Shown in pieces: positions 54,211 through 57,870 of a stretch of 64,000 nucleotides of DNA. How positions within the stretch are numbered: the stretch's first letter is position 1; the number at the start of each line of letters is the position of its first letter. The position numbers were made by a program, and so were the translations under genes. Source of the stretch: Candidatus Nanosyncoccus sp. (GTDB lineage Bacteria > Patescibacteriota > Saccharimonadia > Saccharimonadales > Saccharimonadaceae); contig JAZNDC010000030.1 in NCBI GenBank assembly GCA_045587885.1, positions 1,628 to 65,627 of the forward strand, given 5' to 3'. The notes below the pieces were generated by a model that was not told where the DNA came from, made no database searches, and was given only the letters and a program-made list of their open reading frames with translations.

Positions 54211-55236
54211 ATGGCAAAAAAGGATGCGGTGGCAGAAAATAAAAACGATAAGTCCGACGGAAAGTCCGAAGCGTTGAAGCTTGCAATTTCGCAAATTACC
54301 AAGCAATTTGGTGACGGCTCTATTATGAAACTTGGTGAGACGCCAAAAATGGATGTGGAACTTCTTCCTTCTGGGTCTCTTGCATTGGATTTGGCGCTTG
54401 GTGGTGGTTATCCAAAAGGACGTATTATTGAAATTTATGGGCCTGAATCTTCTGGTAAGACAACATTGGCGCTTCACGCAATTGCAGAGATTCAAAAGCA
54501 AGGTGGACAGGCTGCATTTATCGATGCAGAGCATGCTCTAGACCCAGCTTACGCCAAGAAAATTGGTGTGGATACAGCCAATTTGTTGATTTCGCAGCCA
54601 GATAATGGTGAGCAAGCGCTCGAGATTTGTGAAACTTTGGTGCGCTCTAATGCGGTAGATCTCATTGTAGTGGACTCCGTGGCAGCACTTGTACCACAAG
54701 CTGAAATTGACGGCGAGATGGGCGATGCACAAATGGGCCTTCAGGCGAGATTGATGAGCCAGGCAATGCGTAAGCTTACTGGTATTATTTCCAAGTCTAA
54801 AGCAACCGTGATCTTCATTAACCAAATTCGTATGAAGATTGGCGTGATGTTTGGTAATCCAGAAACAACTACTGGTGGTAATGCGCTTAAATTCTATACG
54901 TCTGTGCGTATTGATATTCGTCGTATCGGGCAGATTAAAGATGGCGAGAACATTGCTGGTAACCGTACTAAGATTAAGGTGGTAAAGAATAAAATTGCAG
55001 CACCATTCCGTACTGCTGAGTTTGATATTATGTACAACGAAGGCATTTCTAAGACTGGTGACGTACTGGACCTCGGTATTCAATATGGTATTCTCGAGAA
55101 GGCTGGTGCGTTTATTAAATATAATGGTGAAACAATTGGCCAAGGTCGCGAAGCAGTGAAAAAGATTTTCCGCGATGATCCAAAATTGATGGCAGAGATT
55201 GAAAAGAAAGTTCGCGAGCAAGCAAAGGCAGACTAA
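54211..55236 (+). CDS. recA: Recombinase RecA
   Basis: [53 protein letters not shown]. Confidence 0.99.
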
Positions 55237-55788
55237 ATGGAACATCCAGGCGAGATTTGGCAGGAGTATGATTTTAATGGGGAAAGGCTCGGGGGGATAG
55301 AGCCGGATAAGTGTGATTTTGATGCGATTCATCTTATGGGTGGCGTAGCGTTGATGCTTTATCGTGTGCGCGATGGCGAAGTAGAATTTCTTTTCCAACA
55401 CCGTTCCAAATTATTGCGAGCAAATCCAGATAAGTGGGATGTATCTGCGGGTGGTCACGTAAATTTGGACGAGCCAGTGGTTGATGCGCTTGTTCGTGAG
55501 ACACGTGAAGAAATTGGTGTTGATATAGATAAAAACAAAGTTGAATACGCCATGACATATCTTCGCTGGAAGGTATTGATACATTTGTATTATTATGATT
55601 GGGGTGACAGGCTGGACGAGTTTTCTTTTGATGACCAAGAAGTCGAAGAAGTAAAATGGGTAAAATATTCTGAGTTAAAAGATTTTTATTCAAATTTGAA
55701 ATGGTCTGATTATGGAGAAGACAAGTTCTTTACGTTGAGTATTGAAGAATTGAAAAATAGAGTTTTGGAAAAAAGTGGAAATATATAA
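55237..55788 (+). CDS. NUDIX hydrolase
   Basis: SAGGHVNLDEPVVDALVRETREEIG Nudix box. Confidence 0.9.
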   Translation: MEHPGEIWQEYDFNGERLGGIEPDKCDFDAIHLMGGVALMLYRVRDGEVEFLFQHRSKLLRANPDKWDVSAGGHVNLDEPVVDALVRETREEIGVDIDKNKVEYAMTYLRWKVLIHLYYYDWGDRLDEFSFDDQEVEEVKWVKYSELKDFYSNLKWSDYGEDKFFTLSIEELKNRVLEKSGNI

Positions 55789-56524
55789 GATAAAAGATTT
55801 TGAAAAAGTGGATGAGGCGGATGCGGGTTCGACATCGATGGAACTTCGGATTACGGATATTCGGCAGGCGGTGAAAAATGAAAATCGCGTGAATGTTTTT
55901 GTGAATGATAAATACTCGTTTTCGCTTGATATTTCGCAAGTAGTGGATATGCATATTAAAAAGGGGATGGTACTATGCGAGGCTCAACTTGAGGAGTATA
56001 AAAAAGCGAGTGAATTTGGAAAACTGTATCAAAGGACTTTGGAATGGGTGCTTGCGCGCCCACATTCGGAACGAGAAGTAAGAGACTATCTGTACAGAAA
56101 GCTCAAAACATCTTCTTCGGGACGCTCCTCGCGCCCGTCTTCACGGGGCTCGTCGCTGCGTCCTCGTAGCGACTGCGGATGCCCCTCAGAAGACGTTTCT
56201 GAGCTTTCCAATAAAATCATCTCCAAACTGCTCTCCAAAGGATATATTGATGATACTAGATTTGCTCAATACTATGTGGAAAATCGGTTTGTGAAGAAGG
56301 GCGTGTCGCAAAAGAGATTAGCAATGGAGCTGACTAAAAAAGGTGTGACGCGTGAGATAATTGATTCTGTTTTGGACGTGCGAAATGATGAAGAAGAGAT
56401 CAAAAAGATTATTGCAAAAAAACGTGCGAAATACGATGATGAAAAACTTATTCAGTATCTGTGTCGGCAGGGGTTTGATTATCAGTTGACGCAGGAGATT
56501 GTTCGGTCTTACGGAACGGATTAA
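55775..56524 (+). CDS. recX: Recombination regulator RecX, with internal insertion
   Basis: RPHSEREVRDYL, GYIDDTRFAQYYV, KLIQYLCRQGF; located downstream of recA. Confidence 0.88.
   Translation: MEIYKIKDFEKVDEADAGSTSMELRITDIRQAVKNENRVNVFVNDKYSFSLDISQVVDMHIKKGMVLCEAQLEEYKKASEFGKLYQRTLEWVLARPHSEREVRDYLYRKLKTSSSGRSSRPSSRGSSLRPRSDCGCPSEDVSELSNKIISKLLSKGYIDDTRFAQYYVENRFVKKGVSQKRLAMELTKKGVTREIIDSVLDVRNDEEEIKKIIAKKRAKYDDEKLIQYLCRQGFDYQLTQEIVRSYGTD
56101..56204. repeat. GC-rich palindromic element in frame within recX
   Basis: Outer stem gctcaaaacatcttct / agaagacgtttctgagc; inner hairpins gcccgt..acggggc and gtcgctgcg..cgtagcgac. Confidence 0.75.
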
Positions 56525-57078: not shown

Positions 57079-57870
57079 TTATAAAGTAATTTGGCGAGCG
57101 TCTTTGACGTCGTAGTCGGCGATTTTGGTGCGGCGGAGAGCGGTGAGGTAGGCACCAGTGCCAAGAGCTTTGCCGATATCTTCGGCGAGAGTACGAATAT
57201 AGGTGCCAGAAGAAACGCGGCAACGTATTTTTAGTTCTGGGTAATTGTAGTCTAGGATATCAATACCATAGATGGTAACTTTGCGGGATGGAATTTCGAA
57301 ATCTGCGCCCTTGCGAGCGAGTTTGTAGGCACGTTCCCCGTTAATTTTAATTGCACTGAAGCGCGGTGGAGTTTGCTCTACTTCACCGATGAAAGAGTTG
57401 ATAACAGAAATAATTTTTTCTAAACTCGGATAGTATTCGCGCGGGTTTATTTTTACAACATGTTCTGCCTCTGAAAAATTCTTTATGCTGGCTTTGCCAG
57501 CGGAATTTTCCAGAGGTGAAATGTTGTAAAAATCCGGCGAATCACTCAACTTCTCTTGACGAGAAGTTTCGCCATGTTTAGAAAAAATTACTTCTGTTAA
57601 CTCTCCTTCAGGGTCTCCGGTAGTGGAGGTATAGCCAAGCTTCAGTGTGGCTTCGTAGACTTTGTCGTGTTTTAAGAATTCATTGGAGCGTTTAGTCATT
57701 TTGCCGGAGAGAAGGATGAGAAGGCCAGTGGCAAAAGGGTCAAGGGTGCCGGTGTGGCCGAGCTTAACTTTGTGACCAAATTGGTCGCGGAGTTCGCGAC
57801 GTACGCGCGCAACTACGCCAAAGCTAGAAATGCCGGCAGGTTTGTCTACTAAAATGATTTGGTCTTCCAT
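57079..57870 (-). CDS. truB: tRNA pseudouridine(55) synthase TruB, with internal insertion
   Basis: VDKPAGISSF, KLGHTGTLDPFATGLL, QTPPRFSAIKING.RAY.LAR, VSSGTYIRTL, LRRTKI. Confidence 0.95.
   Translation of the reverse strand: MEDQIILVDKPAGISSFGVVARVRRELRDQFGHKVKLGHTGTLDPFATGLLILLSGKMTKRSNEFLKHDKVYEATLKLGYTSTTGDPEGELTEVIFSKHGETSRQEKLSDSPDFYNISPLENSAGKASIKNFSEAEHVVKINPREYYPSLEKIISVINSFIGEVEQTPPRFSAIKINGERAYKLARKGADFEIPSRKVTIYGIDILDYNYPELKIRCRVSSGTYIRTLAEDIGKALGTGAYLTALRRTKIADYDVKDARQITL
57434..57573. repeat. Palindromic element in frame within truB
   Basis: atttttacaacat...cctctgaaaaattc / gaattttccagagg...atgttgtaaaaat around gctggc-ttt-gccagc; second hairpin aacttctc-ttgac-gagaagtt. Confidence 0.85.

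Follow-up and report, generated by a model that had tools for sequence, protein, structure and literature searches.

A probable in-frame copy of a GC-rich fold-back repeat family in recX of Candidatus Nanosyncoccus, and how its core may spread

To our knowledge, in-frame selfish palindromes have been known mainly from Rickettsia, how they move has never been resolved, and we know of no transposase for them. These Rickettsia palindromic elements (RPEs), attributed to Ogata et al. 2000, are reportedly short repeated palindromes in a small, AT-rich and host-dependent genome, with many copies in frame in housekeeping genes, where they are said to add peptide loops, and copies at orthologous positions reportedly persist across species. 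The GC clusters of yeast mitochondrial DNA are GC-rich hairpins in an AT-rich genome and lie sometimes in coding sequence (var1); they belong to an organelle genome, are shorter than the elements described here and are reported with short direct target repeats. RPE-1 to RPE-8 are described as inserted in frame in functional ORFs, and REPs are GC-rich hairpins of 20-40 bp with a GTAG or CGTC tag and an associated Y1 (RAYT) transposase (PMC3733652). Bacterial MITEs, for example those of Coxiella burnetii, are small non-autonomous repeats able to alter proteins (PMC5896051). Previous studies also documented that template switching between the arms of inverted repeats homogenises the arms, inverts the spacers and expands the repeats (PMC8604942, PMC13100816).

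Here we analysed a stretch of 64,000 nucleotides from a Candidatus Nanosyncoccus genome (contig JAZNDC010000030.1), referred to as the window, in which the segment 56097-56208 is, in all likelihood, an in-frame copy of a genus-restricted, non-coding, GC-rich fold-back repeat family. This identity combined with spread by a fold-back mechanism is the best overall explanation of our observations, with a probability of about 0.62. The host of the element is recX (55775-56524, plus strand), an ORF of 249 aa with a GTG start whose product matches the Pfam domains RecX_HTH1 (match ending at about aa 109), RecX_HTH2 and RecX_HTH3 and begins with an N-terminus, MEIYK, common to orthologues. The GTG start overlaps the last 14 nt (55775-55788) of an upstream Nudix-like ORF (55237-55788), recA (54211-55236) is located directly upstream of the latter, and the three genes thus lie in a single compact block.

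The recX translation contains RDYLYRKLKTSSSGRSSRPSSRGSSLRPRSDCGCPSEDVSELSNKIISKLLSKGYIDD, in exact agreement with the peptide quoted in the preliminary description of this DNA, and the insert peptide sits between RDYLYRK and NKIISKLLSKGYIDD. That description had proposed a palindromic element much richer in GC than the gene and folded into a closed multibranch hairpin. Indeed, we found a GC content of 0.62 at 56100-56199 versus 0.35-0.43 in flanking recX and 0.416 (41.6%) genome-wide, and 56095-56215 folded as one closed multibranch structure of -57.6 kcal/mol, versus a mean of -33.2 kcal/mol for shuffled sequences (z = -6.9, with 0 of 200 shuffles folding equally well). The location was right and the proposed extent (56101-56204) slightly narrow, the hairpin covering 56097-56208 (112 nt) with inverted repeats at 56097-56108/56197-56208, 56106-56121/56183-56198 and 56152-56160/56165-73. 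On the plus strand, the left arm of the AT-rich outer stem (GAAAGCTCAAAACATCTTCTTC, 56097-56118, codons KLKTSSS) pairs with the right arm (TCAGAAGACGTTTCTGAGCTTTC, 56186-56208, codons SEDVSELS), and the two arms enclose a GC core of 67 nt with about 70% GC (GGGACGCTCC...GGATGCCCC, 56119-56185, plus strand), which is the repeated unit. Within this core lie, on the same strand, the tip of the conserved long hairpin P3 (CCCGT-CTTC-ACGGG, 56134-56147), invariant or covarying in the family alignment, and a second inner hairpin (GTCGCTGCG-TCCT-CGTAGCGAC, 56152-56173), which represents the variable P2 module.

RecX had been expected to tolerate an insertion at this place, and the AlphaFold model agrees: mean pLDDT is 86.7, only the core residues fall below 50, between two helices, and the codons of the stem extend both helices that border the insert in the first RecX three-helix repeat. 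In this model, RecX is thus predicted to accommodate the insert as a disordered core loop between prolonged helices. A second in-frame hairpin lies in truB 1.2 kb downstream (window 57434-57573, minus strand), with a long AT-rich stem and a GCTGGC-TTT-GCCAGC tip; the covariance model described below does not match it, and it therefore belongs to a different repeat family, which makes the in-frame hairpin phenomenon a general one in this genome.

When the 121-nt element was compared with its own genome (834 kb), the similarity search returned a single partial match of 32 nt, in pheT, also translated as SRPSSRGS. What revealed the family was a search for islands that are rich in GC and fold strongly, extended with nhmmer and then with a covariance model (R1). 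Many look-alikes were present among the islands, each with a related GC core inside a long, near-perfect AT-rich stem of differing sequence, and 11 copies aligned to a common three-way-junction architecture composed of a P1 base helix (TYGAGGG / CCCYGARA), a variable hairpin P2 and a long hairpin P3 (AGCGCGCC-N3-CCCGY-GNNG-RCGGG-C-N3-GGCGACGCG) with compensatory changes. The family core is branched and about 70-80 nt long, and the outer stem is locus-specific, AT-rich and 10-30 bp long. R1 matched the window at 56112-56192 on the minus strand (G000:C30:57739-57819, G000 being the genome of the window), and the recX copy is a somewhat degenerate family member, antisense to the model. There are 14 covariance-model matches and 14-16 copies in all in this genome, so the anticipated copies elsewhere do exist: a core of 64-67 nt recurs at other loci, intergenic as well as in other ORFs, and the window core is identical at 64 of 64 nt to an apparently intergenic copy (open frame of 56 aa) in another species. 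Inside long ORFs are 11 of the 16 copies of this genome (polA-like, two in tsaD, two in obg, pheT, recX, two tRNA-synthetase-like, dnaX-like and a methyltransferase), translated in all three frames and in both orientations, these gene-context counts being based on open frames, not on annotation.

Most copies outside ORFs either follow immediately on the stop codon of a same-strand gene upstream or lie in terminator-like stems with an A-run and a T-run, and those inside ORFs favour the sense orientation relative to the gene (22:6 in other genomes, 7:3 here). The antisense orientation has more stop-free frames than the sense orientation, and therefore stop codons do not explain the bias. Searches of Rfam 15 gave no relevant family, either for the recX copy at E<=10 or for seven well-preserved copies at E<=1.

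All genomes analysed were metagenome bins. In the genus Candidatus Nanosyncoccus (Saccharibacteria; ruminant gut metagenomes), the R1 model matched 36 of 41 genomes, with 1-34 copies each, and by the same model the family was absent from the other five and from 40 genomes representing 40 other families of the order. Each of the 40 best copies from 20 other genomes has its own outer stem, typically of 15-30 bp, and 28 of these 40 lie in frames open across a whole 1-kb stretch. About two thirds of the copies are in frame in housekeeping genes, namely recX, tsaD (two sites), obg (two sites), pheT, leuS and lepA, and empty alleles were found for recX, tsaD, obg and lepA. As a functional class, the suggested parallel with RPEs is supported by these dispersed copies, by their in-frame position in housekeeping genes and by orthologues free of them. 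The core was not found in viral contigs by a pattern scan or in phage by BLAST, and our literature searches returned no description of such elements in Saccharibacteria.

We examined 80 RecX loci of the genus, and the loop could be classified in 78 of them. Alignment of these relatives, proposed beforehand as the way to define the indel, did so: in 17 of the 78 loci, and in every other family of the order, there is a short loop instead of the element (the short native-looking form being YKKIFEKKLDKNYIDR), about 21 of the 78 carry the GC element, and the remainder carry other loops. A variable RecX loop, which the preliminary description took to be frequent, is therefore a property of the genus; in the other families of the order, a few codons lie between the two RecX halves. 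At least five core subtypes occupy this one site: type I, that of the window (SSGRSSRPSSRGSSLRPRSNCGCPSED), type II (..RARRYGAQS..), type III (..PVTTG..), type IV (..RRPVFTG..) and further, rarer ones. The locus L055 carries a type I element inverted in place within the same stem, with 99 of 127 nt aligned to the reverse complement of the insert of the window, and its peptide is for this reason entirely different. The sister genes L039 (type I) and L046 (type II) have flanks about 90% identical; their cores agree in the left half and diverge in the P2 module, and their stems carry paired changes. Orthologues of G011, G012 and G006 retain the outer stem with a different core or with no core, and in G006 and L069 the stem remnant stands alone.

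The RecX closest to that of the window outside the loop (L054, 84% identity) is an empty allele, and the RecX tree requires at least 11 changes of loop state. Moreover, recX is a recombination mosaic, the last ~200 nt (56330-56524) being about 95% identical to L054, which comes from another species, and the 5' half about 65-70% identical to it; gains, losses and allelic exchange are therefore inseparable in the tree. As L054, the nearest empty allele, has a different native loop of 13 codons and the gene is a mosaic, neither the boundaries of the element nor the native arm can be assigned for the recX copy, and the insertion is too old to tell which arm was native.

At the nucleotide level, five type I recX orthologues differ by 6.9% in the core, by 19% in the outer stem and by 30-34% in the flanking recX sequence, which makes the core about 5 times better conserved than recX as judged from these alignments. 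Of the cells in 14 type I copies, taken at recX and elsewhere, 83.6% pair versus 44-50% in slid-partner controls, and 21 pairs have changed on both sides, 19 of them among the 27 outer-helix pairs. At the facing codons of the P3 tip, the 120 closest RecX sequences have P/R (CCG/CGG) in 62 cases, L/Q (CTG/CAG) in 10 and P/Q or L/R in none; P to L and R to Q thus always change together, which is the swap of a C-G for a T-A pair (of 72 homologues, 10 have CCTG/CAGG in place of CCCG/CGGG). If the stretch were simply a lineage-specific RecX loop maintained for its peptide, with incidental GC content and pairing, this would agree with the nearly identical insert peptide carried by 69 of these 120 homologues. 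We nevertheless regard this reading as refuted and give it hardly any weight, because the two substitutions are paired without intermediates, L055 carries the reverse complement with another peptide, this DNA is also present intergenically and, in each of the three frames, inside other genes, the nearest RecX outside the loop (L054) has no insert, and the segment is predicted to be disordered. The preliminary description had named orthologues with protein-level conservation of the loop as the finding that would speak against it; many orthologues do carry the loop, and it is the nucleic acid that is conserved in them, as seen in the paired changes, the compensatory substitutions in the stem, the L055 inversion and the copies in other frames or between genes. 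By these comparisons, conservation therefore acts on the nucleic acid and not on the peptide.

A sequence removed from the RNA or the protein, in the manner of an intron or intein, would be brought together at its ends by the long stem. The 11 ORF copies here and the 28 elsewhere leave the reading frame of the host intact and without stops, a feature that excision would not need, no intron family matched in Rfam, and an intein of 35 aa with no conserved peptide is impossible; we therefore consider removal of the insert extremely improbable. The in-frame repeat copy is the reading followed below.

There were signs of recent copying, as cores from separate loci of a single genome are often identical. 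In G012, three copies (two in leuS and one in lepA) are 100% identical over the 78-nt core and have unrelated outer stems of about 20-25 bp, in G020 five copies are 97-99% identical with unrelated outer stems, and 25 of 46 copies have their closest relative within their own genome. Identical cores with unrelated stems mean that the stems have not diverged from the stem of a donor. We had considered the outer stems as a second repeat family or as a diverged donor stem, and rejected both for this reason and because ten copies of one core have nothing in common beyond the innermost ~8 nt.

Filled and empty sites were compared in tsaD, obg and lepA. TsaD homologues range from 339 to 503 aa owing to at least three insertion hot spots, and tsaD of this genome (G000:C13:61373-62587, minus strand) has two unrelated hairpin inserts. 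At site 2, whose insert is missing from the close relative GCA_016852305.1, the empty allele reads GCA-GAAAAAGG-TGATGC and the filled allele GCA-[TCAGGAGTGA...TCACTCC]-TGATGC, so that 8 nt are replaced by 83 nt (net +75 nt) without a direct target duplication. Over ~190 nt, the element at site 1 and that of GCA_016852305.1 are 100% identical, within a gene that differs by about 10%; neither arm of the site-1 element resembles the empty allele, and a rule that one arm is native is therefore not shown to be universal. In lepA, empty alleles have a (G/A)PxP motif before ALIFDS, and in six lineages the left arm encodes this native motif and the right arm is its reverse complement, with the core in either orientation. 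In obg, the empty allele is GAAGGTGTTTTGATAGCCGAC and the filled allele GAAGGGATTTCTGAGACC[core]GGTCTCAGAAAACCCTT-ATTGCTGAC; the left arm (GAAGGGATTTCTGAGACC) is similar to the empty allele (GAAGGTGTTTTGATAGCC), the right arm is followed by the native LIAD codons, and pairing has been extended into flanking codons by synonymous changes (GGT to GGG, TTG to CTT). The leuS copies look similar, with conserved EIEF codons in the left arm. In lepA and obg, although not universally, this anatomy suggests that the core is the moving unit and that insertion takes the form A-core-A', where A is a native target stretch and A' its reverse complement. We know of no earlier description of such a signature for bacterial repeat elements. 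Neither the locus-specific stem, apparently built from target DNA, nor the far stronger conservation of the core than of recX had been noticed in the preliminary description.

Several further observations were made at these genes. lepA of this genome (G000:C26:18383-19552, minus strand) is split into frames of 188 aa and 424 aa exactly at the loop where relatives carry hairpin elements; the splitter is a cassette of ~620 nt encoding a histidine-phosphatase-like protein (MSLKLFFVRHGQSEAN...), and TATAAT-like boxes precede the cassette ORF and the restarted half of lepA. G013 and G046 have a similar split, and G009 and G048 may have one too. obg of this genome (G000:C25:14703-16295, minus strand) has two inserts, and at the second site the close relatives P0250 and P0251 retain nothing of the element except its final codons (SGSREDYL), apparently the remnant of a deletion. 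For one obg locus (L167:379-1686), the stored product fits the DNA only if TAG is read as Q and has an extra C-terminal Q after the normal end, which looks like a gene-calling artefact rather than recoding.

One explanation of such copying is a conventional non-autonomous transposon of MITE or REP type, mobilised by an unrecognised enzyme that reads the conserved core. The strong conservation of the core beside freely varying stems, the bursts of near-identical cores in some genomes, the orientation bias relative to genes and the semi-conserved TYGAGGG/CCCYGARA motif at the core boundary all agree with it. We consider it unlikely, since the three filled/empty pairs have no direct target-site duplication, the stems differ at every locus, and the flank is duplicated in inverted form instead. 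In addition, Y1_Tnp (PF01797; Y1/RAYT), the sole transposase family searched, has no match in G000 and matches in only 2 of the 41 genus genomes, a non-exhaustive search revealed no larger parent element with the core, and the phage and viral collections do not hold the core either.

Spread of the core by fold-back (snap-back) template switching, which would need no transposase, is a tentative mechanism that we rate at slightly less than an even chance and that is based on how the junctions are built in a few genes. The flank A would first be copied into a nascent strand, which would then acquire the core, the core would fold, and the 3' end would prime on the strand's own A and make A', after which synthesis would return to the template. 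In this way only the core would be copied between loci, and it would land between the native stretch A and the new A'. The same process would keep the arms complementary, lengthen the stem into the flanks, invert the core in place and let one core subtype overwrite another at a resident hairpin. The known effects of template switching would thus explain the compensatory evolution of the stem, the in-place inversion and the synonymous extension of pairing. Selection would then remove copies that break a reading frame or an essential fold, and what survives would be copies read in frame in surface loops and those located where a terminator would be. As an alternative we rejected hairpin-opening 'P-nucleotide' chemistry of the hAT/RAG type, because it would give A-A'-core, not A-core-A'. 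More speculatively, the stable three-way-junction core may spread through the genus without any transposase as the turning point of snap-back synthesis, each new copy making an inverted duplicate of its target flank and so, if true, an in-frame 'stalk-and-loop' addition in an essential protein, or else it may be the recognition site of a hairpin-specific enzyme; we find this somewhat doubtful.

Some observations stand against the fold-back mechanism. The core is conserved far more than passive sequence should be, the in-ORF orientation bias is not explained by stops, the native arm cannot be told at recX and neither arm is native-like at tsaD site 1, and the mechanism gives no account of the first jump to a core at another locus. 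Core conservation and orientation bias would be explained no less well by a protein partner that recognises the sequence or by a function of the RNA. In that case the repeat would be a functional cis-element under selection, either a motif in DNA or RNA to which a protein binds or a structure that acts in termination, in mRNA processing or at the mRNA 3' end, which is compatible with mobility and would make the recX copy a tolerated or even useful by-product. The low core divergence relative to the host gene, the tsaD site-1 element unchanged amid diverged flanks, the sense bias and the placement of most non-ORF copies behind stop codons or in terminator-like stems point in this direction. Conversely, both orientations occur, and at recX the element has been flipped within its stem. 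Genes that are otherwise alike often hold a remnant without a core or no insert at all, one subtype can take the place of another at a single site, the repeat family is missing from five genomes of the genus and from all other families of the order, and Rfam has no match; we hold a cis-element to be rather improbable, and keep the mobile fold-back repeat as our reading.

As an independent and much richer case of in-frame palindromes, the family occurs in Saccharibacteria, which have very small genomes and depend heavily on their hosts, with more than 100 species-level genomes available, several core subtypes and repeated hits at the same recX, tsaD, lepA and obg sites. Single sites show empty, filled, inverted, overwritten and decayed states. 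The suggestion that the hairpin stem is built from the target itself renders the mechanism testable by comparative genomics and by template-switch reporters. Further, the family shows a route by which new loops and helical extensions can arise in essential proteins, and it is a warning for annotation: odd segments rich in Ser, Arg, Pro and Gly in these proteomes are driven by DNA and are not functional motifs.

Compared with the known systems, the family resembles RPEs in being a set of repeated palindromes in a small, AT-rich, host-dependent genome, with in-frame housekeeping copies that add a peptide loop, with copies at orthologous positions across species and with no known transposase. It differs from them in its phylum, in its GC-rich three-way-junction core and a locus-specific stem apparently derived from the target's own flank, in having about two thirds of its copies within genes, in a core several-fold better conserved than the host gene, and in the exchange and inversion of cores at resident sites. 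In terms of function it is the RPE phenomenon of Rickettsia in another phylum; we do not file it as an RPE, as it is confined to one Saccharibacteria genus, and RPE-1 to RPE-8 were compared by description only. With the GC clusters of yeast mitochondria it has in common GC-rich hairpins that spread in an AT-rich genome, and it differs in being longer and bacterial and in having an inverted flank duplication rather than direct repeats. Like REP and REPIN sequences, which are GC-rich hairpins mostly downstream of genes with some inside repair or replication genes (PMC3733652), it places hairpins behind and within genes, and unlike them it has a branched core of ~80 nt and no Y1 transposase (PF01797) in G000; lacking a RAYT and limited to one Saccharibacteria genus, it is not filed as a REP. 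MITEs are bounded by fixed terminal inverted repeats and direct target duplications and have a parent IS; none of these features was found here, and owing to the missing direct target duplications the family is not filed as a MITE. Template-switch inverted repeats and 'coding palindromes' share with it perfect inverted-repeat arms in coding sequence (PMC8604942, PMC13100816, PMC6649704), and arm homogenisation, stem expansion and spacer inversion are seen here too (L055; 19 of 27 outer-helix pairs; L039/L046), although those repeats are local and have no dispersed conserved core, whereas here a mobile core seeds a palindrome at many loci. The family thus combines a dispersed conserved core with the behaviour of template-switch repeats and 'coding palindromes' (PMC6649704).
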